Source of the DNA: a virus
Direction: 5' to 3' (one strand)
IMG/VR virus record: IMGVR_UViG_3300036790_000419
Location: 84,914-148,913 of that record
DNA: 64,000 bases
Shown: positions 9,566 to 55,959 of the stretch, piece by piece
Layout: each line of letters opens with the position of its first letter
How positions within the stretch are numbered: the stretch's first letter is position 1
Program-made: the position numbers and the translations under genes
Notes under the pieces: model-generated
The model's input: only the letters and a program-made list of their open reading frames with translations
Told to the model about the DNA's origin: nothing
Databases searched by the model: none

Positions 9566-9637
9566 CCAGCCCTGTCTCACGCGGGCAGCCCCGGGCGACG
9601 TCGCCCGGGGCTGCCTGTGCTTCCCGATTAACCGGGC

Positions 9638-9937
9638 ATGCACCTCACGGGAATGTGGCACGAGTTCATGGCCGCCGCCGGCAATGCCCCGGGCGCGCAG
9701 AAGGGTGACGTCATCGTCACCCTGATGGACCCGGTCGGCGGGGTCGGCGAGGTCACGGTCCCCAGCAGTGACGTGACCATCGCGGCCGAGGCCGGCAACC
9801 TGATCGGCGTGCAGCTCAAGATGCCGGACGGGCGCCGCCTGTTCGTGTCCGCAGCCAACCTGGCCGGCATGATCGACGCGCCGCGCGAGGAGGCCCGGGA
9901 GGACAAGCCGGCCCGGGCGCGGCAGCCTGGCAGGTAG
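9638..9937 (+). CDS. hypothetical protein
   Basis: GC3-rich; CCGATTA 7 nt upstream. Confidence 0.7.
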   Translation: MHLTGMWHEFMAAAGNAPGAQKGDVIVTLMDPVGGVGEVTVPSSDVTIAAEAGNLIGVQLKMPDGRRLFVSAANLAGMIDAPREEAREDKPARARQPGR

Positions 9938-9953
9938 CCCCGATTAAGGGGGC

Positions 9954-11552
9954 ATGACTACACCGGGCGGCGGGCAGGGCTCCTACAGCTCCAGCGTGCA
10001 GCCGCCTGGTGGCCTCGGGGTTAGCAGTCAGGGCTACGGCCAGGAGGGCTACGTCCTGCAGGACGAGCAGACGCTTGTCCAGCCGCCCGACGAAGCTCTC
10101 AATTTTGCCACCGGCGTCCCGTACTTCCTCCCCTTCGCCACCCCGTACCGGGACTCGTGGGAGGTCTTCCGCGACGACCCGGTCAGCATCCGCCAGCTGG
10201 TCACCATGCGCCGCCGCGACGGCCAGGCCAGGGCGCTGTACCGGCTGCTGACCAAGCCGCTGCTGAGCGCGATGAAGAACGCCGACGTGGTGCCCGCCGA
10301 CGGGGTGACCGGCGGGGTGGAGGAGGCCCGGTTCTGCAAGGACCTGCTGTTCGCGCCGCGGGCGCAGGGCGGCATGTCTCAGTCGTTTGACAAATTCGTC
10401 AAGCAGATGCTGCTCGCGCTGTTCAACGGGTTCAGCGCCTGGGAGATGGTCTACTGGGTCCCCAAGACCGGGCCGAACAAGGGCAAGTGGACGCTGCGCA
10501 AGATGGACTGGCGCCCTTCGGAGACCCTCACCTTCCTGCTTGACGGCCAGGGCGAGTTCAACGGCTTCCGGCAGCGCACGTTCTTCCAGGGCCGGACGAT
10601 CGACGTCAAGATCGCGAAAGAGACCGCGCTGTACTACGCGCACGAGGAAGCCGAGCGGCCGTTCTACGGCGTGTCCATGTTCGAGAGCGCCTTCTACCAC
10701 TACGACAAGAAGGAGAAGCTCTACTACATCGCTCACCTGGCGGCGCAGCGGGCCGCGGTGGGCCTGCGGGTGGGCACGATGGTGCCGAATGCCCCGGCTG
10801 AGGACAAGAACAACTTCATCCGGGCGCTGGCCCAGCTCGGGCTCGCGCAGTACATCGCGCTGCCCACCGCCGACTGGACGGTGCAGACCCTCAACGAGTC
10901 AGCCAGCCGGTTCGACTTCCTGGGGCTGATCAACCACCACAACAGCCAGATGTCCAAGAGCGTTCTCGCCCAGTGGTTCGACAACGAGCAGGGAGGCGGC
11001 CAGGGGGACAGCACGCTGGTCGACTTCGGCAAGCAGGACGACGTCACCTACTTCCTGATGCTGGAGGGCATCCTGGAGGAGATGGCCGGGATCATCACCG
11101 ACCACATCTTCCCGCGCTTCGTCGACTGGAACTTCGGCTCCGGCAAGTACCCGCAGTTCAAGTGGGGCCCGCTGACCGAGGAGGCCAAGGCCGCCATCCA
11201 GGACACGTTCGACAAGCTGGCCACCGCCGGCCAGCAGGCCAACGTCACGCCGGAGTTCATGCTCGACCTGGAGCAGCGGATGGCCGTCGACTTCGGGTTC
11301 GACATCGACTACGACAAGATCAAGGCGGACCGCGAGAAGCAGCAGAAGCAGATGGCCGCCCAGCAGAAGCAGATGGCCGCCCAGGCCCAGCAGCAGGCGC
11401 AGAACCCGGTCCAGGCCGGGAAGGGCGGGTCCCCCCAGCAGCCGGTGGTGCACATCAAGGTCCCGGTCGGCTCCCAGACTTCCGCCACCGGCACGTCGGC
11501 CTCCGGCGGCAGCGCGGTCGGCCAGCGCAGCGGGAACGGGCTAGACAGGTGA
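9954..11552 (+). CDS. portal protein (Mu gp29/DUF935-like)
   Basis: Position and size; ALFNGFSAWEMVY, ERPFYGVSMFESA, INHHNSQMSKSVLAQ motifs. Confidence 0.85.
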   Translation: MTTPGGGQGSYSSSVQPPGGLGVSSQGYGQEGYVLQDEQTLVQPPDEALNFATGVPYFLPFATPYRDSWEVFRDDPVSIRQLVTMRRRDGQARALYRLLTKPLLSAMKNADVVPADGVTGGVEEARFCKDLLFAPRAQGGMSQSFDKFVKQMLLALFNGFSAWEMVYWVPKTGPNKGKWTLRKMDWRPSETLTFLLDGQGEFNGFRQRTFFQGRTIDVKIAKETALYYAHEEAERPFYGVSMFESAFYHYDKKEKLYYIAHLAAQRAAVGLRVGTMVPNAPAEDKNNFIRALAQLGLAQYIALPTADWTVQTLNESASRFDFLGLINHHNSQMSKSVLAQWFDNEQGGGQGDSTLVDFGKQDDVTYFLMLEGILEEMAGIITDHIFPRFVDWNFGSGKYPQFKWGPLTEEAKAAIQDTFDKLATAGQQANVTPEFMLDLEQRMAVDFGFDIDYDKIKADREKQQKQMAAQQKQMAAQAQQQAQNPVQAGKGGSPQQPVVHIKVPVGSQTSATGTSASGGSAVGQRSGNGLDR

Positions 11553-11851
11553 GCGCGCACGAGGCCATGGCGGCGCTCGCCCGCGACCTGGTCGAGGAGC
11601 TGGCGGCCGGGCGGGCACTGGAGCTGGCCGCTCAGGCCCAGGGGCCGGGGGCGCCCCCGGCCGCGCCCTTGCCCCCGGTACCGCCCGCGAAGACCGGGGC
11701 CGGGGCCGTGTACCCGCAGCTCGGCAGCGCGCTGCTGGTCCCGCCCGGCGATACCATCTCCGGCCTTGCCTACGCGCACCTGCAGCCGCCTCAGCCGCCT
11801 GGTGCCCCGGGCGGCCAGCCGGGCGCGCGGCCTCCGATTGCCGGTCAGTGA
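11549..11851 (+). CDS. Pro-rich hypothetical protein
   Basis: GTGA overlaps at both ends. Confidence 0.55.
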   Translation: MSAHEAMAALARDLVEELAAGRALELAAQAQGPGAPPAAPLPPVPPAKTGAGAVYPQLGSALLVPPGDTISGLAYAHLQPPQPPGAPGGQPGARPPIAGQ

Positions 11852-12306
11852 CCGACGACCGTCTGATGCGCCAGCAGGCCCCGTATCCCGAAGCCCTCGC
11901 TTACCTGGTGGAGCGCCTTGAGTACCGGCCAGGCTGGGAGTTCCGCCTTGCGGACGCCGACCGGGGCCAGGGTAGCGCGGGCCTCACCCTGACCATCACG
12001 ACACGGGGGTACGACAGCAGGCACCCTGACCGGGGTGAGAACTACCGGGTGGACCACTACATGCTGGTGCCGCCGGCCGCCTACGACCTCCGGTCGTGGC
12101 AGCACTGGCTATTTGAGCAGCTGCTCCTCGTTGAGCGGCACGAGGCCATGGAGTTCTTCGCCGTTCACGACTCGCCGGGCAGCGAGCACCTGGTGCGCCC
12201 GCTGTCCCCGAGTCACGGGCCGGGTAACGATCCTTACCTTGTCCGTGAGGTCGGTACTGATGTTGACCAGCGCACCAGCTTTCGCGGCGTCCTGAACCCG
12301 GGGTAG
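11848..12306 (+). CDS. hypothetical protein
   Basis: GC3-rich; CCGATTG 7 nt upstream. Confidence 0.7.
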   Translation: MTDDRLMRQQAPYPEALAYLVERLEYRPGWEFRLADADRGQGSAGLTLTITTRGYDSRHPDRGENYRVDHYMLVPPAAYDLRSWQHWLFEQLLLVERHEAMEFFAVHDSPGSEHLVRPLSPSHGPGNDPYLVREVGTDVDQRTSFRGVLNPG

Positions 12307-13313
12307 TGGCGGACCCCGGGCAGCAGGCCGCGGCAGCCGTGCGCCAGTCGGCGGCGGGGGCGGCCGGGTACCTCGCGTTGGTCACCCGCAGCAACCCGCT
12401 CGGCTCGGCCGACGACCTGCTGCGCCGCCCCGACACTGACGCGGTCCTGCGGCAGGCACTGGACGAGGCGCGCTCGGCGGCGGGTGAACTAGTCCGCCAG
12501 GCCTGGGACGACTCGGGCGCCGTGAGCGGCGACGACGAGACACTGAACGACCTGCTGGACGACATCGGCAAGATCTTCGGTGAACTAGCCCGCCTGCGCG
12601 GCCTTGTCCGGCACGCCCACGCCTCGGTCCCGCCGCGCGTCTTTATCCGCGGCGTGCACTCCCCGGGCGAGCACCCGTCCCAGAGAGCCGCCGAGGAGCG
12701 CGCGGACGCCGTGCGGGACGCTCTCCTCGGCTGGGGCCGCCAGGCTGCCCTGAGGGCCCGCATGGCCGCGCACGCAGCCGCTGGCGCCGGCGCGTCGGCT
12801 GCGGTTCTCGCCGGCGGCCTGGCCCGCGAGGCCGCCGGCGAGAAGCTGCGCAAGCGGTGGCGGGCGCACGCCGAGAGCCCGTCGTGCTGCTACTGGTGCC
12901 GGAAGCTGAACGGGGTGACGATTGGCCTGCGCGAGTCGTTCGCCCCGTACCTGGGAGGCCCGGTGGCGATGCCGCAGTCCCGCGAGCGGCGCGTGGCCAC
13001 GCGAGCGGGGGCCGCGCGGTACGGCCTGCCGGCGGGCTCTAGGATCGTCTACACGCACCCGCCGCGCCCGTACCACGGTAAGCTTCAGGGACCGTTGCTC
13101 CACCCCTTCTGCAGGTGCTGGCTGGAAATCGTACGTACTGGCGATTCCGTCAGGGTGCCTGTGGACGGCGGCCCGGCACCGGAGAAGTTCATGTCCGCGG
13201 ACGACATCCGGGACATGCCCGAAGACGGCTACCAGGCTGACCTCGCGTTCCTGCGGGCGGCCGTCCACGAGCTGGACCAGGTACTGAAGAGACTGGCTGA
13301 GGGTGGTGGCTGA
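12306..13313 (+). CDS. MuF-like minor head protein
   Basis: SCCYWCRKLNG ... PLLHPFCRC motif; follows the portal. Confidence 0.75.
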   Translation: MADPGQQAAAAVRQSAAGAAGYLALVTRSNPLGSADDLLRRPDTDAVLRQALDEARSAAGELVRQAWDDSGAVSGDDETLNDLLDDIGKIFGELARLRGLVRHAHASVPPRVFIRGVHSPGEHPSQRAAEERADAVRDALLGWGRQAALRARMAAHAAAGAGASAAVLAGGLAREAAGEKLRKRWRAHAESPSCCYWCRKLNGVTIGLRESFAPYLGGPVAMPQSRERRVATRAGAARYGLPAGSRIVYTHPPRPYHGKLQGPLLHPFCRCWLEIVRTGDSVRVPVDGGPAPEKFMSADDIRDMPEDGYQADLAFLRAAVHELDQVLKRLAEGGG

Positions 13314-13539
13314 CAAGACGCGCCAGTGGTTCGCGGACAGTACCGTTTCCTACGCGCTGGGCGTGCTCGCACTGTTCGAGTACGCGAGGGCACACGGGGT
13401 GAAGTACGTTTTCGGGCCGCTGGACACGCACTCGATGACCGACGGGGGACTCACCGTCTCCGGTGCCGAGCACGACCTGGACCAGGCCGCCGCCGTGCTC
13501 GCCGGGGTTCCCGGGCTGGTGGAGTACGAGCCCGATTAG
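13303..13539 (+). CDS. hypothetical protein
   Basis: Coupled GC3-rich ORF. Confidence 0.6.
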   Translation: MVADKTRQWFADSTVSYALGVLALFEYARAHGVKYVFGPLDTHSMTDGGLTVSGAEHDLDQAAAVLAGVPGLVEYEPD

Positions 13540-13689
13540 CTGTCCGTGGACAGCGAGTGGGCGATCCGGGACGACGGGGAGTGGGCGGTCAGGGAAGAGC
13601 CGCCGCCGGAAGACGAAAGCAGCTCCCGGGCCGGCGATGACCCGGGAGCTGCTAGCGCTGACGGTACTGCGGCCCCTGACGCTGGCGAG

Positions 13690-13893
13690 TTACGAGCCGA
13701 GCTTGTCGAACTCACCCTTGTTCACGCCACCGAGGAAGGCGTGCCACTCATCCGGAGTGAAGCGGAGCACCGCCCCGTCCCGGTCACGGCTGTTGCGGAC
13801 GCCCACTACCCCGTTGCCGAGGTCCGCCGCTTCCACGCAGTTGCCGTTCGCGAAGCTCAGGGAACTCTTGACCCATTCAGGATCGGGTGCCAT
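13690..13893 (-). CDS. DUF397 (BldB-like) protein
   Basis: WVKSSLSFANGNCVEAA..VGVRNSRD..LRFTPDEWHAFLGGV signature; SD AGGAG. Confidence 0.85.
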   Translation of the reverse strand: MAPDPEWVKSSLSFANGNCVEAADLGNGVVGVRNSRDRDGAVLRFTPDEWHAFLGGVNKGEFDKLGS

Positions 13894-13973
13894 ACACATT
13901 CTCCTGCCGTAGCTACCGAAAGTTGCAGCAGAGCCCATCTTGCCTGCTAACTAGACTCAAGTCAAGAGGAAGC

Positions 13974-14189
13974 ATGATCGCCAAGTCCCGCGAGGGCATA
14001 CCGGCCGAAGCAGCCGAGATCGCTGACCGCCTGGAAGCGGCCGGGCTGGACGACGCGGCGGCCAGCGTGCGCCGGGCCGCGCGGGTGGCGAGGACCGATC
14101 CCGCGCTGGCGGAGTCCATCCTGCGCGAGGCGGCCGATGACCTCATGGCCCGCAGTCCCGCCTACAGCCACCGGCGCAAAACCCCGTAG
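13974..14189 (+). CDS. small helical hypothetical protein
   Basis: SD GAGGA then ATG. Confidence 0.55.
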   Translation: MIAKSREGIPAEAAEIADRLEAAGLDDAAASVRRAARVARTDPALAESILREAADDLMARSPAYSHRRKTP

Positions 14190-14204
14190 TCCGATAACAG
14201 GGGC

Positions 14205-15320
14205 ATGCTCGATGACCTGCGCTGCATCATCCCGTCGCCTTCGGAGCAGACGTTTTCTCCTGTCGATGACGTGCCTGTAGCGCTGGCACGCACCAGGCGG
14301 GTGACCGGCAGGCTCTTTGAGAAGCACATCCTCAACATGGGCGACCTGATCCACCCCAAGACCGGGGAGAAGATCCGGGTCGACGACGCCTTCGTGGCGT
14401 CGCTGCAGGACAACTTCACCCGGGGCGTGTGCGACATCGTGCAGGTCCCGCTGGCCAACGACCAGAACCAGCACGTGGAGAACCCGGGCGCCAACCTGGG
14501 CGAGGTCGTCGGCATCAGCGCGCGCGGCAAGAAGGTGTACGCGCTGCTCGACGCGCGCCAGGACGCGGAGAAGTTCGGCAAGACCTACCTGGGCGCCTCA
14601 GCGTTCCTGAGCACGAACTACACCGACAGCGCGACCGGCAAGAAGGCAGGCCCCACCCTGCTGCACGTGGCGGTCACCAACCGGCCCTACGTGACCGGCC
14701 TGGACGACTACAAGGAAGTCCTGGCCGCGTCGGCCGATAGCACAGGCGAAGTTGTCGTCCTGACTCCCGCGCCGCCGGAGGAAACCGTGCCGCTTACCAG
14801 GGAAGAGCTGCTCGCCGCTCTGAAGAACGAGCACGGCATCGACGTGGCCGCGCTGCAGGCCGCTGCCCCGCCCGCGCCGGACACCGCCGCGCTGACCGCC
14901 TCCGTCGTGCAGGCGCTCAAGGACGCCGGCATGGTGGGCCTGAGCGCTGATCCCGGCCAGGTGAGCCTGTCCGACGTCACCGCCGCGGTGGTCGAGCTGG
15001 CCGGCAGCAACAAGGGCCTGCGCAGCGAGGTGGACGGGCTGAAGCTGGCCGCCGCCGCGACCGAGGTGGACGGCTACATCGGCGCCGGCCGGCTGCTGCC
15101 GAAGACGCGCGAGACCGCCATCGAGATGGCACTGTCCAACCGTGCCGGGCTGGACTCGATCCTCGCTCCCGAGGACAAGCCCTACGTCGCCCTCGGCGTG
15201 CAGAAGGGCGTCTCCGGCCCGGACGGCGAGCAGCGCCAGGAGCAGGACGTCGATGCTGAGCTGGCGCGGCTGGCCGCGGAGCACAAGGAGTTCTTCACTC
15301 CGGACGGCACCCGGAACTGA
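14205..15320 (+). CDS. Mu gpI-like capsid maturation protease with C-terminal scaffold
   Basis: LLHVAVTNRPYVTGL motif; coiled-coil C-terminal half. Confidence 0.8.
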   Translation: MLDDLRCIIPSPSEQTFSPVDDVPVALARTRRVTGRLFEKHILNMGDLIHPKTGEKIRVDDAFVASLQDNFTRGVCDIVQVPLANDQNQHVENPGANLGEVVGISARGKKVYALLDARQDAEKFGKTYLGASAFLSTNYTDSATGKKAGPTLLHVAVTNRPYVTGLDDYKEVLAASADSTGEVVVLTPAPPEETVPLTREELLAALKNEHGIDVAALQAAAPPAPDTAALTASVVQALKDAGMVGLSADPGQVSLSDVTAAVVELAGSNKGLRSEVDGLKLAAAATEVDGYIGAGRLLPKTRETAIEMALSNRAGLDSILAPEDKPYVALGVQKGVSGPDGEQRQEQDVDAELARLAAEHKEFFTPDGTRN

Positions 15321-15348
15321 CCGGGTTTAGCGACGAGGAGCGCGGCAG

Positions 15349-16038
15349 ATGCCATCCAACGACAGCTTCGAGTTCGACTACCCGCCGGGTTACGTCAAGC
15401 CGACGCACGAGTACGGCCAGTCGTACGGCGACGAGTTCCACGCTGAGGCGGTTCAGGAACTCCTGCTGTCCTATGCCGGCTTCACCCAGCGGGGCGTCAC
15501 CCTGGCGGCCGGGCAGGGCGTGCTGCCGACTGGCTGCATCATCGCCCGGCACGTCGCCTCCGGCCGGTACTTCTCCTACCAGGCGGGCGCCACCGACGGG
15601 CGGCAGGTCCCGGTCGGCGTGCTGCGCGACTCCCGTGACACCGGCGGCCCCGGCGCGGCGAGCCTGTCCGCCTTCAACGCCGGCACCAACGGCGTGAACC
15701 CGGACGGCATCACGCTGGTCGGCGGCGCGGTCGTCTTCCCGGCGAGCCCGGGCGGCAAGGTGGCGACCGACGCGCTCGGCAACATGGTGGTGCGCGGCAT
15801 CCTCAACGGCAACGTGGTCTCCGGCACCGACACGACCAACATCATCAACGGGCGCGGCCTCGGCTCCGGGGTCGGCCAGTCGATGGTGCTGCTCGGCGCG
15901 CGGTACGTGCCCTACGGCGGCGCGGTCTCCGGTGCCTCCCTCGGTGCCCCGTTCCCCGGCGGCCCGATGGACGGCGTGCCGCCGAGCAACGCGGGCGTGG
16001 TGCCGACCGGCGTCGGGGTCTCGGCGTTTATTTTCTGA
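15349..16038 (+). CDS. head decoration protein (lambda gpD-like)
   Basis: GVTLAAGQGVLPTGCII..PVGVL; lies between protease and capsid. Confidence 0.65.
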   Translation: MPSNDSFEFDYPPGYVKPTHEYGQSYGDEFHAEAVQELLLSYAGFTQRGVTLAAGQGVLPTGCIIARHVASGRYFSYQAGATDGRQVPVGVLRDSRDTGGPGAASLSAFNAGTNGVNPDGITLVGGAVVFPASPGGKVATDALGNMVVRGILNGNVVSGTDTTNIINGRGLGSGVGQSMVLLGARYVPYGGAVSGASLGAPFPGGPMDGVPPSNAGVVPTGVGVSAFIF

Positions 16039-16364
16039 TGGCTGACGGGCTGCTGTGGGCCTACAGCGGGCCTGCGCTCACGCAGGCGAAGAGCCCGCTC
16101 AACTCACCGTGGTTCGCGCTAGGGGGGCCACAGCTTTCTGCCAACAGCATCAGCCAGGCCCTGCTCTCATGGGCTGCGGCCGGGGGCACCACCACGGTGA
16201 CCGTGCAGGGCAGCTTTGACGGGGTGAACGTGGACGCGGACCTCACCTACACGGTGACGACAGGTACGCCGTTCAGCATCATTACCCCGTACTTCCGAGT
16301 GAACGTGGCACAGACCGTGGCAGATGCGACCAAGACCAAACTGGTTCTCGTTGGAAGGTCCTGA
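16038..16364 (+). CDS. hypothetical protein, possibly virion-associated
   Basis: TGATG coupling; beta-rich. Confidence 0.6.
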   Translation: MADGLLWAYSGPALTQAKSPLNSPWFALGGPQLSANSISQALLSWAAAGGTTTVTVQGSFDGVNVDADLTYTVTTGTPFSIITPYFRVNVAQTVADATKTKLVLVGRS

Positions 16365-16367
16365 CCG

Positions 16368-16685
16368 GTGATTTACGCGCAAGTAATTAGCATTCCTGCG
16401 AGTTCGGTCGTCGAGGTCTTCACGGAGATGGGTATCGACCCTCTCCGCTGCGAAGTCATTGTTCAGTTCGAGAGCCCGGTCGTTACCGGGATCGTGCTGT
16501 TTCTCGCGCAGGACGCTGCCGGAACCAATGTCGGGCCAGCGCTTGACACGGAGGCCGTGGGCAGCGGGGGGGCTGCGCTCCCGCTGGCTACCTCCCGTTT
16601 CTGCACGGATAAGGACCCGGTGTACCTCCAGAACACGCACAGCTCCGCAATTAACGTGGCAGTCGCGCTCACTGACCACCCCTAA
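16368..16685 (+). CDS. hypothetical protein
   Basis: ORF with lower GC3. Confidence 0.55.
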   Translation: MIYAQVISIPASSVVEVFTEMGIDPLRCEVIVQFESPVVTGIVLFLAQDAAGTNVGPALDTEAVGSGGAALPLATSRFCTDKDPVYLQNTHSSAINVAVALTDHP

Positions 16686-16704
16686 CCCCGCCGATAGCCC
16701 GGTC

Positions 16705-17046: not shown

Positions 17047-17075
17047 GATTGACGGTTGCGCAGTACACCGCCAGT

Positions 17076-17113
17076 GCCAGCCCCCGGACCCACCCTCCGG
17101 GGGCCGGCTTTTT
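17076..17113 (+). terminator. intrinsic terminator
   Basis: GCCAGCCCCCGGA/TCCGGGGGCCGGC plus T5. Confidence 0.75.
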
Positions 17114-17132
17114 GCTATAGCCCTGTTCTGCG

Positions 17133-17948: not shown

Positions 17949-18079
17949 GGTTCTTCTCCCCGCCGATTAGACACGCGTAAAGGCCAGCCATGTGGCCCGG
18001 TGATTCGGGCGGCGCAGGCCGGGCACCCGCAGGTGTCGCTGCTACAGACATTTATTAGTCTACACCAGCTCACTAAGGG

Positions 18080-19288: not shown

Positions 19289-19320
19289 GCTGAGGCCAGC
19301 TCTGCCCTAGAGCTGCGGTT

Positions 19321-19360: not shown

Positions 19361-19650
19361 GCCCGGGCGTAGTAGTTACCGTGCCGCGGCACGGGCCCTC
19401 CTCCCCGGACCCGGCACCGGGAATGAGGGAGGGGCGGAGGCAAACTGCTGGCCCGGAACGAGACACGCCGGCCCCGGCCGACGGCGAGGATCTCCGGGCA
19501 GAGCCGCTAGCCGTCCCTCCCGATTTCCGGGTATGCTCCGTGACTGCTAAGGGGATTCACCGTCAGGGCCGCCTTGCCCGCTAAGCCCTGGCCTCGAAGG
19601 GGCCCGGCCCGCAACCGGGCCCCTCTCGTGTTTCCGCCGATTGCCCTCGC

Positions 19651-20361
19651 ATGGCAGGACTGAGCGGCGAGCAGGCCGTTATCGACGTGGTGGCCCTCTC
19701 CGAGCGGCTGTGCCCCAGCACCTCCAACGAAACCGCCGCAAGACTGGAACTGCCGCCCGAGGTTCCAGCGGAAATTGGGCCCTCCTGCGCGCTCGGGCAC
19801 CCCAACGCGCCCGGCATGCGGTTCTGCGGCGCGTGCGGGCTGCCGGTCGGCGCGTCCATCCCGGTGCGCGGCGAGCCCCAGCGGCCCAAGCCGGCCGGCC
19901 AGCTGACCCCGGCGGAGAAAGCGGAGCGCGAGCGGCAGCACGCTGAGGCCGTGGCCGCCGCCGCGCGGTTCGAGAACCAGCCCCAGCGGTTCGTGCCGGC
20001 TGAGGGCGAGGCCGTGCTCATCCACTTCGTGGCCGACGGGCTGACCGCGTTCGGCCAGGTCTGGTACCGCGGGCAGGAGCTGCAGATCGGCCCGGATCAC
20101 CCGCGCTGGGCCGAGGCCCTGGGGTGGATCACCCTTAACCGCTTCCAGCAGGCCAGTCGCTGGGGTGAGCAGAAGTTCGACTTCGGCCCCTGGCCCGGCC
20201 GCCGCCACGTCGATGCCCTGGGCAGCTTCGAGCAGCTGACCGGCACCGACCCTCAGGGCAACAAGGTGGCCATCACCGGGCCGACCGAGCAGCAACTGCG
20301 CGACGCGGACGCGGCGGAGCGCAGGCGCGGCCGGGCGGTGCCCGCCCCGGCGTTCGGGTAA
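19651..20361 (+). CDS. Zn-ribbon-containing hypothetical protein
   Basis: CALGHPN..FCGACG; CCGATTG 7 nt upstream. Confidence 0.7.
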   Translation: MAGLSGEQAVIDVVALSERLCPSTSNETAARLELPPEVPAEIGPSCALGHPNAPGMRFCGACGLPVGASIPVRGEPQRPKPAGQLTPAEKAERERQHAEAVAAAARFENQPQRFVPAEGEAVLIHFVADGLTAFGQVWYRGQELQIGPDHPRWAEALGWITLNRFQQASRWGEQKFDFGPWPGRRHVDALGSFEQLTGTDPQGNKVAITGPTEQQLRDADAAERRRGRAVPAPAFG

Positions 20362-22591: not shown

Positions 22592-22629
22592 CTGTCCGAT
22601 TAGCGGTGCATGGCGTTCGCGAGGCTGCC

Positions 22630-23208
22630 GTGACCTGGCCGGTGCCGACCGTCACGGAGCTGGCCGAGTACACCGGCCGGCCGGTAACCGGCTACACCAG
22701 CTACGTCAATTCGGCGCTGCTGCAGTCCGCGATGATGTTCACCGTCCTGGCTGAGCTGGGCGCGGACGACTACGGGGGCATGCGACCGGACTTCCAGGCC
22801 CTGGCGAACATGGGCATCATGGCGATGGGGGACTACCTGTACCTGCGCTGGCCGTACGCGCAGGCCCTGGCGAGCCCGATGCAGAGCGAGACGATCGGCT
22901 CCTACTCCTACTCCAAGCCGGTCGAGCAGATGGCCCGCAACGCGCAGGCCATCGAGGTGACCTCGGAGAAGACCGGGGTTGACATGTTCGACCTGGCGGT
23001 ACGCCGCCTGGCCCGGCGGCGCTCGATGAACGGCGTGTTCTTCGGGCAGATCACAGGCTTCGAAAAGCGCGCCCGCGAAGACCTGGCGTACGTCAAGTGG
23101 GATCCTGACGAGGAGCGCATGGTGCTGGTCGGGCCGGCGGATAGAGATCAAATTGATTTCCAGTTCTTCAGCATCAGCTCCGAGTCCTTCCCCGGCGATC
23201 CTGCGTAG
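22630..23208 (+). CDS. head-tail adaptor
   Basis: PTVTELAEY..QSETIGSYSYSK motif; position. Confidence 0.75.
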   Translation: MTWPVPTVTELAEYTGRPVTGYTSYVNSALLQSAMMFTVLAELGADDYGGMRPDFQALANMGIMAMGDYLYLRWPYAQALASPMQSETIGSYSYSKPVEQMARNAQAIEVTSEKTGVDMFDLAVRRLARRRSMNGVFFGQITGFEKRAREDLAYVKWDPDEERMVLVGPADRDQIDFQFFSISSESFPGDPA

Positions 23209-24249: not shown

Positions 24250-24692
24250 CCGAGCCGCGCCGCCGCCTGCTGGTCACCGGCTCACAGGACTGGGATGACG
24301 CGGTTACCGTCCGGCGGGTGCTGAAGGCCGTGTGGATGTACGACCCGGAGACGCTGCTGGTGTCCGGGGCCTGCCCGCGCGGCGCTGACCTGATCTGCGA
24401 GGCGTACTGGGGCATGTTTCTGCACGGCGACGCCGAGCGGCACCCGGCGGACTGGTACCCGGGCGGGAAGTACGACGGCACGGCCGGCATCCGGCGGAAC
24501 CAGGCGATGGCAGACCTGGGCGCATGGGGCTGCGTAGCCTTCGGGCTGCCCTGCGAGCGCGTGACGTGCAGGGGCAGGCAGCCCGACCCTGGCTGGCCGT
24601 TCCACGTAACGCACGGGACGGGGGGCTGCGCGCGCTACGCTGAGGCTCGCGGCATCCCGGTGAAAAGGTACGTGCCGATCCTGGCGGCATGA
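24246..24692 (+). CDS. SLOG-superfamily (DUF2493/YspA-like) protein
   Basis: LLVTGSQDW..VSGACPRGAD..HPADW..AGIRRNQAM. Confidence 0.8.
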   Translation: MTEPRRRLLVTGSQDWDDAVTVRRVLKAVWMYDPETLLVSGACPRGADLICEAYWGMFLHGDAERHPADWYPGGKYDGTAGIRRNQAMADLGAWGCVAFGLPCERVTCRGRQPDPGWPFHVTHGTGGCARYAEARGIPVKRYVPILAA

Positions 24693-24948: not shown

Positions 24949-25214
24949 GTATCCCGTTCGACGCGGGCACCCGCCAGCGGGCGGCCCGGCTAGCCATTTA
25001 CCTCTACTACCCGGACGGCTCATCGGCGGTGGCGGAGGGCACGGACCTGACGGTCGACTCCGAGTTCGACTACGGCGGGCGGGTGACCGACATCCAGGCG
25101 GCACCGGAGCTGACGTCCCGGCTGACCCCGGCCATGCGCCTGCGCATCTACCCGGCACAGCCCGGCCGGGCCACGCTGCGGGTGACGAAGCGCCCTCCGA
25201 TTAGCGAGACGTGA
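24945..25214 (+). CDS. hypothetical protein
   Basis: GTGA overlaps. Confidence 0.6.
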   Translation: MSIPFDAGTRQRAARLAIYLYYPDGSSAVAEGTDLTVDSEFDYGGRVTDIQAAPELTSRLTPAMRLRIYPAQPGRATLRVTKRPPISET

Positions 25215-26144: not shown

Positions 26145-26324
26145 ATGGACAGTGATTCGACCGCGCACGCCGAGATCCGCGAGCTGGTCAGCCTGGAGGA
26201 GGCGGACGCCTTCGTGCTCGGCTGGAAAGAGCGCGTCTTCTACGAGCTGGACCAGATGCGGAAGCAGATGCCCTACGCGGACACGCTTGAGCTGCGCCTG
26301 ACCAGCACGAGGCGGCCCGATTAA
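26145..26324 (+). CDS. 59-aa hypothetical protein
   Basis: MDSDSTAHAEIRELVSLEEA..; GC3-rich; below the ORF-track length cut-off. Confidence 0.6.
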   Translation: MDSDSTAHAEIRELVSLEEADAFVLGWKERVFYELDQMRKQMPYADTLELRLTSTRRPD

Positions 26325-28900: not shown

Positions 28901-29164
28901 TTGGGCGGGATGAAGTTCACCCCGGCCGGGGTACACCGCGAGCCCCAGGGCGTGAAGCGGCCGGCTGAGTGGTACGTCGTCTGGCTGGGCCGGCCGCACG
29001 CCGAGGGCAGCGTCATCATCGGCCGGACCAGGCGGCTGCGGCGGCACCTGTGGCACCGCTGCTTCCCTGAGTCGGGCGGCGCGTGCCGCGACGTCAAGGG
29101 CCACACGGCGGGCGTCGAGTGGCTGCTGGAGATGTACCGGGCGGCCGTCCCGGCGCCCGATTAA
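28901..29164 (+). CDS. hypothetical protein
   Basis: GC3-rich ORF. Confidence 0.5.
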   Translation: MGGMKFTPAGVHREPQGVKRPAEWYVVWLGRPHAEGSVIIGRTRRLRRHLWHRCFPESGGACRDVKGHTAGVEWLLEMYRAAVPAPD

Positions 29165-34016: not shown

Positions 34017-34066
34017 CCTGCGCCGATTGTCCCGGCATCTGATCCCGAGAGGCCCAGGAGGCCCGC

Positions 34067-43707: not shown

Positions 43708-44220
43708 ATGGCACCTCCTCGCATACCCGTAGAAGTCCGCTTTTGGCGGAACGTCGAACGGCGCAGCTTCGCGGAGTGCTGACCCTGGCTGCTGACCACG
43801 GATAAGCGCGGTCGTGGTGTTTTTGGGCTTCATGCTGGCGAGCTTGAGGCTTTGCATACAGGCACTTACCTACCTGCGAGGGTGGCATACCGCCTCTTGT
43901 GGGGCCGTTGGCCTGACCCGCAGGCTCTCCATGGGTGTGACAACCCGCCGTGCTGCAACGCAGAGAACCCAGAGCACATCCACGAGGGAACACAGTTGCA
44001 GAACATGCAGGAGATGAACAGCCGGGGTCGTCATGCACATGGCTACTCCCTGAGCGCCCGTGCTGGTGAGCGACACCCGCTAGCGAGGCTCACGCAGGAG
44101 CAGGCAGATGAGATGCGACAGCTTGCCGGGGGCGTTAGCCGGAAGGACTTGGCCGTCATGTTCAACATCTCCCTGTCTCAGGTGGGCATGGTCTTGCGGG
44201 GCGAGTCGTACCGGCGATTA
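43708..44220 (+). pseudogene. HNH homing endonuclease with in-frame TGA
   Basis: RFWRNV..EC*PW..LHGCDNPPCCN..H..GT..N plus C-terminal HTH; TGA at 43780; frame stays open to 44466, end approximate. Confidence 0.75.
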
Positions 44221-46479: not shown

Positions 46480-47155
46480 TTTTGCAGGAGCAGCTGAGCA
46501 GCTTCGCGTCGGGGCCAGTATCCCGCTAGGCGAGTTCGTCCGCGTGCGCACCTCACTCAACGTGAAGCGGTGGGACGCTGACCAGACCGAGTGGGCCCTC
46601 CGCAAGCTCGACCGTGACACGCTGGGCCTGCTCAAGGCGGGCCGGGACGTCACCATCTCTGCGGAGACGTTCGCCCGTCTCGGGGTGGCCCCGTACTCCG
46701 AGACGCAGGACGACGACTGCAACCTGGTGACGCAGGCCGGCTGGGTGGCTATCCTCGGCTCGGTTGCCGGCACGTCGATCGCCACCAAGTTCAGCGCGAC
46801 CGCCGGGCGCGTCGGGGCTGGCACCGTTAGCACCACTGCCACCTACGCCGATGCGCACCTGGGCGGGGACGGCAACTCGACCACCGCTTGGTACAAGCTG
46901 GTCTCCGGAGCCCCCGCCATCTCCACTGGCTCCTCGCCACCCACCCTGGCCTTCGCCGCGACGTTCGGCACGTCGGCGGGTAACTTCGCGTGGGCCGAGT
47001 TCGGCACCGACAACGGGACGGCCGACTCTAACACGGTCTCCGGCGTGTTCCTGAACCACGGCATCAGCGCGCAGGGCACCAAGGTCAGCGGCCAGACCTG
47101 GACCGCGACAGAGACCCTGACGTTCGGCTTTGCGCCACTAGTGGACATTAGTTAG
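46466..47155 (+). CDS. minor tail protein
   Basis: NLVTQAGW..ATFGTSAGNFAWAEFG. Confidence 0.7.
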   Translation: MTSGDFAGAAEQLRVGASIPLGEFVRVRTSLNVKRWDADQTEWALRKLDRDTLGLLKAGRDVTISAETFARLGVAPYSETQDDDCNLVTQAGWVAILGSVAGTSIATKFSATAGRVGAGTVSTTATYADAHLGGDGNSTTAWYKLVSGAPAISTGSSPPTLAFAATFGTSAGNFAWAEFGTDNGTADSNTVSGVFLNHGISAQGTKVSGQTWTATETLTFGFAPLVDIS

Positions 47156-47215
47156 CTGCCTTTAGGAGACCTCACATGATCATCGCTATAAATTTGAGAA
47201 AGGAGTTCCTGAAAG

Positions 47216-47629
47216 ATGAATTTTCCGTTCATTGGTGCCGCAAGCGGCGTTGAAGGAGTTCTAATCCCTGGGGGCATTCCGGGTTACAAGATCTCTCTTC
47301 GCGGGTTGCAAGTTACGGTGCAGTCAGCCCCGGTCGTTTCGGGGCCAGCCACGTTGGCCCTTAGTCAGCTCGCTACTGTCGACAACAAGCAGGGGCGGGG
47401 CCCTAACGGGAGTTTCGTTCTTACGTTCTTGCCGTCTACCACAAAAGCCCTCTACTTCTCGTATGAGTTCCCCGAAGGCTGCGTAGAGACCATTGGGTTT
47501 CCTGTTGAGGACATCCAAGGGCCGCCCGGTCAGCCATACAGCATCACCTGGGCAGTAACGCCTTCCGGGACAGACGACCTCAATGTAGATCTCGCCTACT
47601 GGGGGCAGTTTGTGCCCATCTCGGGATAA
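47216..47629 (+). CDS. low-GC inserted hypothetical protein
   Basis: AT-rich leader, SD AAGGAG, atypical codon usage. Confidence 0.6.
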   Translation: MNFPFIGAASGVEGVLIPGGIPGYKISLRGLQVTVQSAPVVSGPATLALSQLATVDNKQGRGPNGSFVLTFLPSTTKALYFSYEFPEGCVETIGFPVEDIQGPPGQPYSITWAVTPSGTDDLNVDLAYWGQFVPISG

Positions 47630-47702
47630 TTGTTCCGGCTAGGCGCAAACCGTCGTCGCAATTGCCCGAAAGTCCGGCAGGAGGTGAGGCGGTGATGTCC
47701 CG

Positions 47703-50700
47703 GTGAGCTTCAGCGCCATCGGTTCGCCCATCTCCCCGACCGTTACCAGTAAGACGTTCACAATAGTCCCGGGTGCCGCCGGCGATTTCATCTTGTTCAG
47801 CGTTGTCTGCACGTCGACTGTCGCTGACTGGGCCACGGCACTGACCAGCGCGGCAGGCCAGGTCACGTGGACGGCATTGGGTTCGCACTTCGCAGGTAGC
47901 GCGGGCATCAACGACGTTACCGTAGCGGTCTTCCTCGGGAAGGTCGTTACTGCCGCCTCCCACGTGGTCACCGTCACCACCAATGCTGGCTCGCCGTCCT
48001 TGCGCGTCGCCGGGCAGGAGTTCTCTAACACCGCCGGGTTCAGCGTGGTCACCCTGGACGCGTCGGGCACCATCGACGTGGCCTCCAGCGGCAAGTTTCC
48101 GGCGGTTACCCCGCTACAGGGCGCAGGTGACCTGTACTGGTCGTTTGTCTACGACAACGGAACCGGCGTCGTCGGCTCCACGTCGGGTTACACCTACCAT
48201 GTCGACGGCAACGGCAACATTCAGTGCTACAACCTGAGTTGCGCTAACGCCACGCAGCAGCCGAATATCGGCGACACTACCGACGGCACCACGGGCATTG
48301 CCGTCATGCTCTACGAGGCCAGCACCAGCACCCCGGTTTCGGTGGCGGACACCGCTGCCGCGAGTGACAAGACCGCAGTCAGCGCCACCTTTCCGCTAGG
48401 TGACACCGCCGCTGCGGCCGACAAGCTGGCAGTTGCCGTCGCCGTCCCGCTGACCGATACCGCTGCGGCTGCCGAGTCCCTGGCATCCGGCAGCCCCGTT
48501 GCCCTCTCTGATACCGCTGCTGCGGCCGACTCCTTGCAAGTCAGCGTCACGGTTCTGCTAGCCGACACCGCTGCGGCAGCCGACGCGTCGGCCAACATTA
48601 CGCCGACCCCGGCGGACGCCGCCGCCGCGGCCGACAAGCTGACGGTCGGCGGTGCCCTCGGCCTTTCGGACACCGCCGCTGCTGCTGACAGGCTGACGGT
48701 CAGTGCCGCTGTCCCGCTGCACGACACCGCGGCTGCTGCCGACGCCCGCACAGTGCCGTCCGTCACCGTTGCCCTGGGAGACACCGCCGCCGCACGGGAT
48801 GATCTCGGGGCGGTAGGGCCGGGCACCGGCCCTACCGGCTTCGGGTCCGCGCTGCCGAGCGCCGTCCTCAGTGCCTACTCCCCGCCCGGCTACCCGGGCG
48901 GCCCGTCGGGTGCGGGGTCCATCGCCCCGTCAGCGCTCGGCAACGGCTGGGAGGTCGAGGTCCGCGACGGCGGCGACTACGCCACGCTGCTCGCCGTCAT
49001 CCCCGGGTCGATGCTGCTGAACTGGCAGTTCGCCCGGATGCTGAACGACATCGGCTCAGGCACGGTGGTGCTCAGCCAGGACGACCCGTGGTGGGCGGAG
49101 GTGACGCTGCCCGGCGGCCTGCCGTCGGAGACCCTGCTTGACGACGAGTGCCTGTGGCAGGTGTGGAAAGACGGCGTGTGCCGGATGGAGTTCCTCGGCG
49201 AGACCATCACCGAGCAGCTGGCGGACACCAGCGAGCAGCGCCAGGTGACGGTCACCGGGCCGGGCACCGTCACCACGCTGAAGTGGGCCATGGTCGCCCC
49301 GCAGGGCTTCCCGGACATCGTGCTCAAGCTGGACGGGCTGCTTGACGCCTTCGACGAGGTGGACGGCGCGGGCGACCCGGTGCTGGACACCAACATCTGG
49401 ACCACGGCCTCACCCGCCAGCGACGTCTACATCACGCCCATCGCGGTCATCTACAACTACCCGACCGGGGCCGGCTACGCGCTGTCCACGCTGTACCCGT
49501 CGGGCTCGCTCACCCTGTCGGCCACGCCGGGGGCCACGTACCTGGGAGCCAGCCCGTACGACGCCACCGACACCCTCATCAGCGCCGAGATCTCGCCTGT
49601 CGGGGTGAGCAGCAGCTCCACCGACGCCACCGACGCGGCCAGCTACGGCACCGGGCTCGACGGCAGCGAGCTGACCCAGTTCTACATCCAGAGCAACTAC
49701 GACGACCGCGACTACGCGATGATCGGCTTGTCCGCGACAGCCTTCTACGCGCAGCTCGGGTCAGGCGGGCAGGTGCAGACTAAGGTCCTGCCCGCTTACG
49801 ACAGCCAGAGCCACGGCAACTGGATGATCACCGAGCAGGCCGGCAGCGGGGGCGGGGCGGGCACCTTCTACTTCTGGACCTCGCCCGACGGCCAGCAGTG
49901 GACCCAGCAGTGGACGACCGTGCACAGCTGGGACGCCACCAACGTGACGTTCTTCGTCACCGCCGCCTACTCCGCGGCGGGGTCTCAGGCCGTCCAGTTG
50001 TCCAACCTGAACTCCAACGTCACCACGCCGAGCTACCAGGGCTCGATCTACCTGGGCGAGCCGATGATGGGCGTCTGGTTCGACCAGTTCACCCGGGCCC
50101 AGGAGCGCGGCACCATCCCGTTCGTCACCACCACCGCCAGCCCCGCGGCCGACAGCTACGGCCGGGCGTGGGGCGATGTGGAGAACGTGCAGGCGGTCAA
50201 CGGCACCGACCTGTACTCGTTCCTGCAGGGTGCCACCGCGCTGGTGGACGCCGACTACGTGATGGACCCCGGCTTCCAGCTGCGCATCGGCATCCCGGTA
50301 GCCGGGCAGGTCACCCTCGGCGTGGACCGCTCGGGCTACATCATCTTCCGCGACGGCTACGACGTGCAGGCCAGGCAGCGGGTGCGGGCGCGCGACCAGA
50401 TCGCCACCCTCATCGGCGGGGAGAACAGCGACGGGCACGAGATCTCGGCCGAGAGCCCGTCGTTCATCGCCGAGTGGGGGCAGCGCGAGGCCTGGTTCCA
50501 GACCTCCGCCCAGGTCGACCCGGTCTCAATGGCCTACGCCACCGCCTCCAGCCTGGCGGAGAACGAAACCGAGGTCGTCTCCTGGACGTTTAACCTGCTG
50601 CCCAACGTGCCGGGCAAGACGGTGTTCGACGACTTTGACGTGGGCGACTGGGTGGGCCTGGAGCGCCCTGACTTCTCCGCGGTTGACATCGTGCGGGTGG

Positions 50701-53027: not shown

Positions 53028-53064
53028 GCACCACGCCCGTACGTGCCTGACCGATCAACCGGCC

Positions 53065-53394
53065 ATGTCCGTAGGAGCGCAGGCGAGCAAGGCAGTCCTT
53101 GACCAGAACCTCACCCAGCTGGCCCTGCAACTGCGCAGCGCCATGCAGCAGATCCAGAACGAGTGGACGTTCGTCAACAACGGCGCGGCCGGCTCGCCCG
53201 TCGAGGTGCTGACCGCGCTCGGCTACGACAACGCCAACAGCGACGCGCCGGGCGGCCAGTCGGACGCCAGCTACGCCAGCTACCTGCTGAACAACCTCAA
53301 CACGATGGCGGGGCTGTACTTCGGTACCGCGACGCAGGCCAGCCCGTTCGACTTCGCCAACGCCCTCGCGCCGCTGAGCGCCGCGCAGCCCTAG
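53065..53394 (+). CDS. hypothetical protein
   Basis: CCGATCA 7 nt upstream. Confidence 0.7.
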   Translation: MSVGAQASKAVLDQNLTQLALQLRSAMQQIQNEWTFVNNGAAGSPVEVLTALGYDNANSDAPGGQSDASYASYLLNNLNTMAGLYFGTATQASPFDFANALAPLSAAQP

Positions 53395-53397
53395 GCG

Positions 53398-54057
53398 CTA
53401 GGCCAGCGGTACCCCGGGGACCGCCGGCTGCGGCCCGGTCTGCGGCCTCCGGGGGCGCAGTGACGCCGCGCCCTCGCGCTCGGCCTGCTCCCAGGACCGC
53501 ACCTGGGCGGAGATGTTGGCCAGCCCGGCGGTCAGCCCGGCGCGCACCGAGTCCGCCAGCGACTGGTAGTAGGCGAGCTGGCGCTGGGCATCGACCGGCG
53601 CCTGGGCGGCGATGCGCGCGGCCTCCCGGCCGGCCTCGTCGACGGCCTCGCGGAGCATGCGCTCGCGCTGCGCGCGGCCGTCAGCCAGCATGCCCTCCCG
53701 CTGCCGCCGCCCGTTCTCCACCATGCTGCGGGCCTGGCCCTGCGCGTCGGTCATCAGCCGGTCCGCGCCCTCTTGCGCCCGGCGCAAGACGTGCACCGCC
53801 TGCTGCTCCACCGGGGGCGGGAGGTAGCTGCTGCCCGGCGCGGCGGCCAGCTCCCCGGAGAGGCGCCCGACCTCCTGCTCCAGTTCGTCGCGCTCGCTGC
53901 CGAGCGCGTCCAGCTCCGCGGCGACCCGGTTCATGAACCGGGTCACCTGCTCGGCGTTCAGTCCCCGGCTGAAGCCGGCCGAGGGGAAGACGGTCCCCCG
54001 GACCTCCGCGGAGGTCAGCCGCCCGGCCTCGCCGGCCAGCAGGCTTGAGTGCACCAT
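53398..54057 (-). CDS. DivIVA-domain coiled-coil protein
   Basis: LTSAEVRGTVF..SRGLNAEQVTRFMNRVA plus coiled coil. Confidence 0.8.
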   Translation of the reverse strand: MVHSSLLAGEAGRLTSAEVRGTVFPSAGFSRGLNAEQVTRFMNRVAAELDALGSERDELEQEVGRLSGELAAAPGSSYLPPPVEQQAVHVLRRAQEGADRLMTDAQGQARSMVENGRRQREGMLADGRAQRERMLREAVDEAGREAARIAAQAPVDAQRQLAYYQSLADSVRAGLTAGLANISAQVRSWEQAEREGAASLRPRRPQTGPQPAVPGVPLA

Positions 54058-54062
54058 GTCGC

Positions 54063-55190
54063 CTATCCCTCCCACCCGAAGTCCTCAGTGTGGACTTGCT
54101 CTCCGGGCATTCCCAGCGCCGTCAGGCGGCCTTTTGCCGCCCGCACCATCGGCGAGGAGCCGCAGACGTAGGCGTCCCGCTCGCGCCAGTCACCCTGGCC
54201 GGCCGCGACGTCCACGATGCTCCCGTGCCTCCCCGCGTAGCCCGGGGTCTCTCCCGGGTCAGCGGTTACCGCGTGCACGACTGTCAGCCAGTCGTGCTGA
54301 GCCGCCAGTTTCTCCAGCCGGTCAAGCTCGTACAGGTTCTCCGGGGCCCTCGCCCCGAAAAACAGGTTCACGGCCGGGGTCCGGGGCCAGGATGAGATCT
54401 CTTCGAGGATGGCCTGCAGCGGGGCGAGCCCGGTGGAGCCCGCGATGAGCAGGACGTCCCGGCCGGAGGAGGTGTCCAGCTTCAGGTTGCCGACCGGGGG
54501 CCCGAGCCGGAGCCGCGCGCCCGGCCCGGCGTGCAGGGCCAGGGCGGTGGACAGCATGCCGCCGTCCTCGACCTTGACGTGAAAGGTCAGCGCGCCGGAG
54601 TCGTCCGGCGCGTTGGCCGGGGAGTAGAACCGCCATACGCGCGGGGCGCGCTCGGGGAACTGGACCGCCACCGACTGCCCGGGCGCGTAGCTCATGGGCT
54701 GCGACAGCCGGGCGCGGATGACGGCGATGTCCGGGCCGCGCATCTCCCGCTCGGTGACCACCGCCTCCCACCACGGCGGGGAGTCCCCGGCGGCCTCAGC
54801 CCCGGACCGCATCACCTGGGCGATGAGCGCGTAGGCCGCGGCCCAGGTCTCCCGCACCTCCGGTGTCCAGGCTTCGCCGGCGAAGTGCGCCAGGGTGGCC
54901 AGCAGGGCCTGGCCTACCACGTCGTAGTGCTCCGGCTTCACGTCGAACTTGCGGTGGTCGCGGCCGAGCCCGGTCAGGAACCCGCTCAGCCTGTCCAGGT
55001 CGTCCACGTCGGTGACGATCCGCACCAGGGCCGCCAGCAGGCGGTCGCGCTGCGCCGTCATGGCCGGCGGGAACATGTCCGTCACCTCGGTCCCGCCCCG
55101 GTAGAACACCTCCGCGTAGAAGAACGCGGCCAGCTCCTCCGCCTGCGGGGCCACCAGGGCGAAGCTCTCCTTCAGCAGCTTGGTGTCCAG
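54063..55190 (-). CDS. flavohaemoglobin-like protein (globin plus FAD/NAD reductase)
   Basis: LGRDHRKFDVKPEHY globin; WRFYSPAN, IAGSTGLAP, AYVCGS; start uncertain. Confidence 0.88.
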   Translation of the reverse strand: MDTKLLKESFALVAPQAEELAAFFYAEVFYRGGTEVTDMFPPAMTAQRDRLLAALVRIVTDVDDLDRLSGFLTGLGRDHRKFDVKPEHYDVVGQALLATLAHFAGEAWTPEVRETWAAAYALIAQVMRSGAEAAGDSPPWWEAVVTEREMRGPDIAVIRARLSQPMSYAPGQSVAVQFPERAPRVWRFYSPANAPDDSGALTFHVKVEDGGMLSTALALHAGPGARLRLGPPVGNLKLDTSSGRDVLLIAGSTGLAPLQAILEEISSWPRTPAVNLFFGARAPENLYELDRLEKLAAQHDWLTVVHAVTADPGETPGYAGRHGSIVDVAAGQGDWRERDAYVCGSSPMVRAAKGRLTALGMPGEQVHTEDFGWEG

Positions 55191-55329
55191 GGCCGCTTCC
55201 CCCCTTAGTCCGGGTGTGTGATTCACACGCACAAGAGCGGAGCTTAACACCGCAATCCCTACTGGTCAGTTACTTGCCTGGATGCAAGCACATGTGCCCA
55301 GGGCCAGGTCAGGGGACGATTGCCCCGGC

Positions 55330-55959
55330 ATGACCCTGCTCCCTGACCGCGACGGCATCCGCTGGCACCCCCGCTCCGTCATCGAGAAGTACAGCAGCGA
55401 CCAGGTGCGGTGGGCGCGGCGGCGTGACCTCGCCGCGCCGCCGCGGTTGAACGGGGAGACCCTGCGGGGGCTGTTCCCTGAGCCGGAGGACGGGATAGTT
55501 GAAGACCAGGGCAACGGGGTGACCGCGGGCGGCACCGCCAACCTGGCGCTGGTGCTCACCGGCGCGGGCGGCCACCCGCTCGCGCCGGGCCGGGCGGTGT
55601 TCGGGGTGGGCAGCGACGCCACCGGGTTCAGCCGCGAGCACGTGCGCCTGGCGAATGCCGTGGGCGAGGAGCCGGGCCGGTCCTGGTACCGGCCGATGGA
55701 CGCCGGCTACCCGCGTGTCACCCGGACGGGGGCCGTCGAGGGGCAGGCCACGTTCGCTGAGGCCGAGGCCTGCTTCGCCTGGCACGAGTGGTGCTGGGGA
55801 ACCGGGCCGGGCGGGCCCGTGCCGCACCACTCGCTGCGCGGCTGCTACGGCGGCGAGCAGCCGGTGATGATGAACCGGCGAGCGCACCCTGCCGGGTACG
55901 GGGAGAAGCTCGCCGGGGTCGCGTGGGTGTTCCGGACGGAGGTGGCCATCGGAAACTGA
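55330..55959 (+). CDS. paralogue of minor tail protein 46466-47155
   Basis: Shared DQ..WA, N.VT..G, WY, ATF....FAW.E; ACGATTG 7 nt upstream. Confidence 0.7.
   Translation: MTLLPDRDGIRWHPRSVIEKYSSDQVRWARRRDLAAPPRLNGETLRGLFPEPEDGIVEDQGNGVTAGGTANLALVLTGAGGHPLAPGRAVFGVGSDATGFSREHVRLANAVGEEPGRSWYRPMDAGYPRVTRTGAVEGQATFAEAEACFAWHEWCWGTGPGGPVPHHSLRGCYGGEQPVMMNRRAHPAGYGEKLAGVAWVFRTEVAIGN

Follow-up and report, generated by a model that had tools for sequence, protein, structure and literature searches.

Phage-encoded sigma factors that redirect the host polymerase are a classic theme, and the late promoters of T4 (TATAAATA) show how little DNA such a system can use: they consist of a −10 element only, are scattered before many late genes and are read on the host core polymerase by gp55, a minimal sigma that has diverged strongly and depends on gp33 and the sliding clamp. 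The phiEco32 promoters of the middle and late classes have the form tAATGTAtA, with starts 6–8 bp downstream (PMC8948821). Among bacterial factors, the sigma-28 group (FliA, SigD, WhiG) reads a −35 TAAA and a −10 GCCGATAA; in the −10 element of E. coli sigma-28, C-13 G-12 A T A A N-7, the letters C-13 and G-12 set the specificity (bioRxiv 10.1101/2020.01.02.893370), and actinobacterial WhiG promoters combine a −35 xT(C/A)Ax, a 16-nt spacer and a −10 GCCGA (PMC13595943). In mycobacteria, a 5′-terminal ATG or GTG is necessary and sufficient for leaderless translation, and TTG is not used (PMC4633059). Here we describe a recurrent box, CCGATTA-N6-C-R, in the last 64 kb (hereafter the window) of the 148,913-bp IMG/VR virus record IMGVR_UViG_3300036790_000419 (98% complete by CheckV, G+C content ~0.70), a soil phage with a single relative in culture, Microbacterium phage Magritte (capsid identity 49%). 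From the sequence, we put the probability at about 0.75 that the box is a phage late promoter made of a −10 element only, read by the host core polymerase with a FliA/WhiG-like sigma of the phage.

By analogy, the closest functional precedent is gp36 of phiEco32, likewise a phage sigma on the host core polymerase with several −10-like single-element promoters, lacking a −35, before non-early genes (PMC8948821); however, gp36 has no region 4 homology, its box sequence is another one, its host is Gram-negative and there is no leaderless design. The −10-only late promoters and the phage sigma are also shared with T4 and its gp55, whereas no partners of the gp33 or clamp type were identified for the phage studied here. 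As in mycobacterial leaderless mRNAs (PMC4633059), ATG or GTG would be the first base triplet of the transcript and the Shine–Dalgarno sequence (SD) is missing, but those mRNAs come from host principal-sigma promoters, while a dedicated sigma is predicted here to serve a whole phage late regulon. In the literature searched, we found no description of a FliA/WhiG-type phage sigma, nor of an actinophage late regulon of −35-less promoters giving leaderless mRNAs.

All 21 coordinates at which the initial annotation had listed the box hold the sequence it reported. The window contains 15 copies of CCGATWA where 3.5 would be expected (15 or more in 0 of 100 shuffles); CCGATWR is found 19 times on the + strand and twice on the −. 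An ATG or GTG stands at offset 14 from the start of the box in 11 of the 19 + strand copies and almost nowhere else; with a background of 0.024 per site, the binomial P is 1e-13, so the claimed enrichment of start codons exactly 7 nt after the box is borne out. When +1 is set at the first base of the RTG start codon, a position matrix of 20 sites places CCGATTA at −14 to −8, followed by six variable bases, C at −1 (18/20) and a purine at +1 (20/20). C-13, G-12, A-11 and T-10 are each present in 20/20 sites, the base at −7 is A6 C6 G6 T2, and no informative column lies in the matrix upstream of −15, out to −64, so that neither a −35 nor an UP element is seen there. Of the 23 + strand copies in the record as a whole, 21 fall between 81.9 and 131.3 kb, the part that holds the virion genes (P = 6e-7). 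Exact copies at window positions 2821 and 46346, absent from the earlier list, lack C-1/R+1 and are probably chance.

Two classes of site emerged. At the first, the start codon follows 7 nt after the box, so that the box is placed as leaderless mRNAs would have it; these candidates start with ATG or GTG, never TTG, and their open reading frames (ORFs) are 99–532 aa long with high G+C at third codon positions (GC3). At the other six, which had been described as followed by a purine and a short leader, every box does keep C-1/R+1 (chance 3e-5), and in four of them GGAGG and a start codon follow within 40–60 nt. An SD core is missing from all 11 leaderless starts, in line with the earlier remark that most lack one, and occurs at 4 of the 6 starts with a leader and at 11 of 25 further late genes (together 15/31 versus 0/11, P = 0.003). 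Many asymmetric sites in a single orientation within short gene junctions would also suit a phage repressor or other DNA-binding protein, as at the stoperators of Cluster A mycobacteriophages. Known stoperators, however, are conserved 13–14-bp asymmetric sites, a type not seen here; just 7 bp are conserved, the distance to the start codon is exact to the base and a C-1/R+1 resembling a transcription start is present, and we consider such binding sites extremely unlikely.

With bacterial sigma-28 promoters, the boxes share the C-13 G-12 A-11 T-10 register, a full-length homologous sigma and the arrangement of many promoters in one structural regulon; they differ in serving virion genes, in their predicted leaderless transcripts and in the −35. 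The sigma28/WhiG-type promoter of the initial annotation thus stood as regards −10 sequence and register, but not as regards the −35 element: neither TAAA nor xT(C/A)Ax was found at a 15–16-nt spacer in the 20 sites, and by eye there is none at the seven sites of Magritte or at those of low-G+C relatives. The A at −11 is common to all sigma-70-type −10 elements, and a conserved 67-aa protein is co-encoded with the phage sigma, both of which would fit a host principal sigma or another factor that reads the boxes together with a phage protein, the FliA-like sigma being unrelated. Yet the actinobacterial principal-sigma −10 pattern is TANNNT, which G at −12 and the lack of a T at −7 break, and a sigma-70 consensus scan found no promoter at the sites; an ordinary principal-sigma promoter was rejected on these grounds, and the version with a phage accessory protein strikes us as very improbable.

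The remainder of the genome, where a FliA/WhiG-family sigma had been proposed to be sought, does encode one. It is the one clear sigma of the record (230 aa, record 48292–48984) and lies in the replication module, outside the window, with a DNA helicase gene on one side and a DnaB-like helicase gene on the other; Magritte gene 47 (47155–47895), annotated “DNA binding protein”, is a homologous FliA-like sigma with the same neighbours and the same block of residues. Its best NCBIfam match is FliA_WhiG (TIGR02479; 87.8 bits, E 8e-25, profile positions 2–219 of 224), SigB/F/G reaching 28 bits, and a profile of 15 orthologues searched against PDB matches E. coli FliA (6e-31), Aquifex FliA (5e-28) and Streptomyces WhiG (9e-27) ahead of SigF (1e-11) and SigA (3e-8). 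It is therefore nearer to FliA/WhiG than to other sigma classes over its full length (regions 2, 3 and 4, with no region 1.1). The invariant D87, R90, D93, R97 and R100 align with FliA D81, R84, D87, R91 and R94, of which we take D81 and R91 to be DNA contacts; R34, R58 and R74 are also kept, and the conserved residues are mostly invariant in the 15 orthologues and Magritte gp47. FliA R34, R58, R74, R84 and R94 are among the residues touching the −10 element in the E. coli sigma-28 initiation complex (bioRxiv 10.1101/2020.01.02.893370). Two other such contacts, FliA T69 and H26, lack conserved counterparts, and no co-variation was seen across 15 sequences between the T69 position and the base at −9. 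The residue aligned to the FliA −35 phosphate contact R220 is acidic in the family consensus, and the one aligned to K208 is a proline in the sigma of the phage under study; as far as an alignment can indicate, both fit the absent −35 element.

The sigma is carried by 10/10 relatives that are at least 90% complete, and its family has at least 185 metagenomic members, with the JGI label FliA. The record yielded neither a second sigma nor a T7-type polymerase, only two weak helix-turn-helix matches; as the polymerase control matched nowhere, this negative is weak. Pfam gave no match for the neighbours of the sigma gene, and no search dedicated to an anti-sigma (FlgM or RsiG) was made. The 67-aa ORF (record 48096–48299) overlaps the start of the sigma gene, is conserved and has no Pfam match. 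In relatives with at least 63% sigma identity, it is preceded by ACGAT(C/T)N, 7–8 nt and ATG, suggesting that a promoter of the same type drives the sigma operon, in positive feedback.

Of the proposed “phage-encoded or host WhiG-type sigma”, the first half is accordingly supported, and the link to host WhiG found no support. A host FliA or WhiG might still read the boxes and couple virions to host motility or development, with the phage sigma serving other genes, but this is improbable: the phage and all its complete relatives encode their own sigma of such a type, the WhiG/FliA −35 (xT(C/A)Ax at 16 nt) is absent, no second motif class for the phage sigma was noticed, though no search for one was made, and the cultured relative grows on Microbacterium, a genus not known to sporulate. 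In its favour, the box fits the actinobacterial WhiG −10 GCCGA (PMC13595943) as well as the sigma-28 register. A host in Streptomyces, the genus invoked at first, is not supported, the only cultured relative infecting Microbacterium, and nothing connects virion assembly with host WhiG or sporulation, as had been surmised.

Evolutionarily, the box is held in place upstream of orthologous genes. Orthologues, drawn from dozens of relatives, were located by their protein N-termini, ignoring the motif, and scored for CGAT at −13 to −10 of an in-frame ATG or GTG. It was found before the orthologues of the genes starting at 9638 (9/9), 11848 (12/12), 16705 (9/9) and 29171 (4/4), of the protease gene at 14205 (24/35, or 33/35 with a 1-nt shift allowed, a count that takes in Magritte gene 19 at its annotated ATG) and of the post-capsid gene at 19651 (27/29, or 29/29 with that shift). 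Retention was partial for the portal gene at 9954 (6/12, with GGAGG-led starts in 3 others), the 25211 gene (13/25, most others SD-like) and the 26331 gene (13/25). The seven spacer letters vary freely among orthologues, whereas the distance from CGAT to the start is fixed, and the letters at −9 and −8 drift by lineage (TTA, TTC, TTG, TGA, TAG, TAT). Orthologues without a box often carry a GGAGG-type SD in its place, so that a box with a leaderless start and an SD-led internal start look interchangeable. In five complete relatives, CCGAT-N9-RTG occurs in 9–15 copies on the coding strand versus 1–2 for a reversed control pattern. The capsid box keeps its position in relatives down to ~50% capsid identity, including low-G+C ones, which retain CCGAT(A/T)N but use SD-bearing leaders.

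A fixed distance to start codons, with several boxes overlapping the end or stop codon of the upstream gene, could also mean that the motif acts on RNA or translation, as a start-associated, processing or coupling signal. The start-associated sequences of Cluster K mycobacteriophages, short conserved motifs a few bases before many actinophage start codons, contain an SD, and a role in translation is ascribed to them. The box described here, in contrast, has no SD-like core (complementarity to the 3′ end of 16S rRNA was judged by eye only), and its invariant letters are exactly those that sigma-28 reads in its −10 element. The six boxes that lie 40–115 nt before SD-led starts still keep C-1/R+1, and the low-G+C relatives keep the box despite their SD-led leaders, all of which leaves a role at the RNA level a very low probability next to that of a promoter.

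Magritte (OR553905.1) provides an independently annotated genome, and G(G/C)CGATATCCCTG occurs seven times in its late region. At gene 19, the annotated ATG (18374) comes exactly 7 nt after the end of one copy, and a second copy is separated by 7 nt from an in-frame ATG at 5353, which falls 21 nt within gene 9 (annotated start 5332). Four of the remaining boxes stand before gene 17, gene 23, the major tail protein gene and gene 41, and the last is internal to gene 19, as the counterpart of the box at 14734 within the protease gene of our phage. The major tail protein gene (ATG 32426) has a DNA match to Magritte gene 33, and the Magritte box precedes the same gene.

Both leadered head-gene boxes carry further conservation. 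The internal protease box keeps the Asp codon GAT in 9/9 distinct high-G+C relatives, a codon that makes up 5.4% of Asp codons counted over seven long late genes of the window; with its SD and the in-frame GTG 14787, it would yield a nested, C-terminal, scaffold-like product (window 14734–15320), as read from the sequence. The leader of the capsid gene has 21 pairs, 9 of them with compensatory changes, across 14 relatives including low-G+C ones with 42–56% capsid identity; its strands GGCCAGCC, GCGCAGGCCGGG and GUCGCUG are nearly invariant, and it matches no Rfam family at gathering score.

Given the homology of the sigma, the register of the box and the co-occurrence of the two, we infer that the phage sigma reads the box. 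Made from the replication module, it would bind the host core RNA polymerase, and the holoenzyme would melt the DNA at the CGAT box and begin transcription 7 nt downstream, on the purine after the C, presumably late in infection. At 11–13 genes, this purine would be the first base of the ATG or GTG, giving a leaderless mRNA that actinobacterial ribosomes could translate without an SD; at the six other sites, including those of the capsid, major tail protein and tail chaperone genes, it would open an SD-bearing leader. With neither a −35 element nor a leader, such a promoter can be accommodated in gene junctions of 6–16 nt or where the preceding gene ends. Contrary to the first suggestion, not all virion genes would be transcribed individually, since there are ~20 promoters for ~55 late genes. 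A terminator lies upstream of a promoter at few sites only (19598, 17080 and the hairpin before 9624); read-through from one unit into the next is therefore probable for most of them.

Several observations weigh against this reading. The sigma scores far under the curated FliA_WhiG cut-off (87.8 versus 189.6 bits), the FliA contacts Q73, R95 and R98 lack conserved counterparts in it, and it retains its region-4-like C-terminus though the promoters show no −35 element. T is preferred at −9, where the bacterial element has A. The strand bias of the box is weak evidence, because 155 of the 160 called genes are on the + strand. Lastly, two variant boxes in the replication region, outside the window, match the starts of small called genes: CCGATTC ccccggc ATG at record 43033 (93 aa) and ACGATCG caggggc GTG at record 43753 (102 aa). 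Together with the box of the sigma operon, they imply that “late” may be too simple a label.

The sites and other landmarks of the window are listed in Table 1. Its further genes encode decoration, HNH and glycosyltransferase proteins and a 1774-aa protein, in addition to the portal, protease/scaffold, major capsid, major tail, tail chaperone and 2841-aa probable tape measure proteins named there. Pfam searches with the products of eight small box-preceded genes, seven of them leaderless, returned nothing useful. The mini-ORF at 22596–22633 is a possible relay from leaderless to coupled translation.

Table 1 Candidate promoter boxes and other features, in window coordinates. Spacings are from the end of the box to the start codon.
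Position	Strand	Box or feature	What follows	Gene and remarks
522–2489		large terminase		
3445–8350		33-tRNA array		
9624–9630	+	CCGATTA	7 nt; ATG 9638	99 aa; hairpin and T-rich tail immediately upstream
9940–9946	+	CCGATTA	7 nt; ATG 9954	portal; box occupies a 16-nt intergenic gap
11834–11840	+	CCGATTG	7 nt; GTG 11848	152 aa
13532–13538	+	CCGATTA	7 nt; GTG 13546	134 aa; same layout in 2 relatives; caveat: weak coding signal, GC3 0.65
14191–14197	+	CCGATAA	7 nt; ATG 14205	head protease/scaffold
14734–14740	+	CCGATAG	G at +1; GGAGG leader; in-frame GTG 14787	inside protease gene
16691–16697	+	CCGATAG	7 nt; GTG 16705	113 aa; Pfam: weak, sub-threshold coiled-coil-type matches only
17963–17969	+	CCGATTA	G at +1; ~100-nt leader; GTG 18080	major capsid
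17984–18079	+	two-hairpin 5′ leader of capsid mRNA		conserved
19637–19643	+	CCGATTG	7 nt; ATG 19651	236 aa; adjoins strong terminator 19598–19634
22596–22602	+	CCGATTA	7 nt; ATG 22610	7-codon mini-ORF; its TGA overlaps next gene's GTG 22630 (GTGA)
24675–24681	+	CCGATCC (weak variant)	7 nt; ATG 24689	39-aa ORF; doubtful
25197–25203	+	CCGATTA	7 nt; GTG 25211	164 aa; box within 3′ end of upstream ORF
26317–26323	+	CCGATTA	7 nt; GTG 26331	173 aa; TA of box plus next base form upstream gene's TAA stop
29157–29163	+	CCGATTA	7 nt; GTG 29171	194 aa
30611–30617	+	CCGATTA	G at +1; GGAGG leader; ATG 30668	265 aa
32379–32385	+	CCGATTA	G at +1; GGAGG leader; ATG 32426	major tail protein
34023–34029	+	CCGATTG	A at +1; GGAGG leader; ATG 34067	tail assembly chaperone, then 2841-aa probable tape measure gene
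44214–44220	+	GCGATTA (variant)	7 nt; ATG 44228	286 aa
45133–45139	+	CCGATTA	A at +1; leader; GTG 45183	tail-fibre-like, 304 aa
53051–53057	+	CCGATCA (variant)	7 nt; ATG 53065	109 aa
55316–55322	+	ACGATTG (variant)	7 nt; ATG 55330	209 aa; ACGATTG is a common box form in relatives

The uncultured relatives number dozens, at 125–152 kb. Direct terminal repeats occur in two of them, of similar size to our record, so a free phage genome is more likely, and a prophage with host flanks is disfavoured. In searches of phage and plasmid collections, the only close DNA match was a 96-bp stretch of Magritte. At the right end of the window (53398–58929), the minus strand encodes a DivIVA-domain protein and a flavohemoprotein (globin, FAD and NAD domains), and there is also a gene for a GntR regulator; given the free phage genomes with terminal repeats among the relatives, these genes may be phage-borne rather than host flank.

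Taken to its furthest, the reading would be that a large clade of mostly uncultured soil actinophages of 125–150 kb captured a flagellar-type sigma and pared its promoter down to a −10 box alone, which serves as gene junction and stop codon as well, yielding a late regulon of ~20 promoters with zero-length 5′ untranslated regions, in which region 4 no longer reads DNA and the 67-aa protein, co-translated with the sigma from the same promoter type, is a co-factor that closes a positive feedback loop; we offer this full scenario as speculation, and as a whole it is rather unlikely. The system is directly testable in the cultured phage Magritte. It is a natural case for how a group-3 sigma works without −35 contact and may offer an orthogonal sigma/promoter pair for high-G+C actinobacteria. 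For this large family of soil phages, the box amounts to a compact predictive rule for late gene starts, against which annotated starts can be checked.

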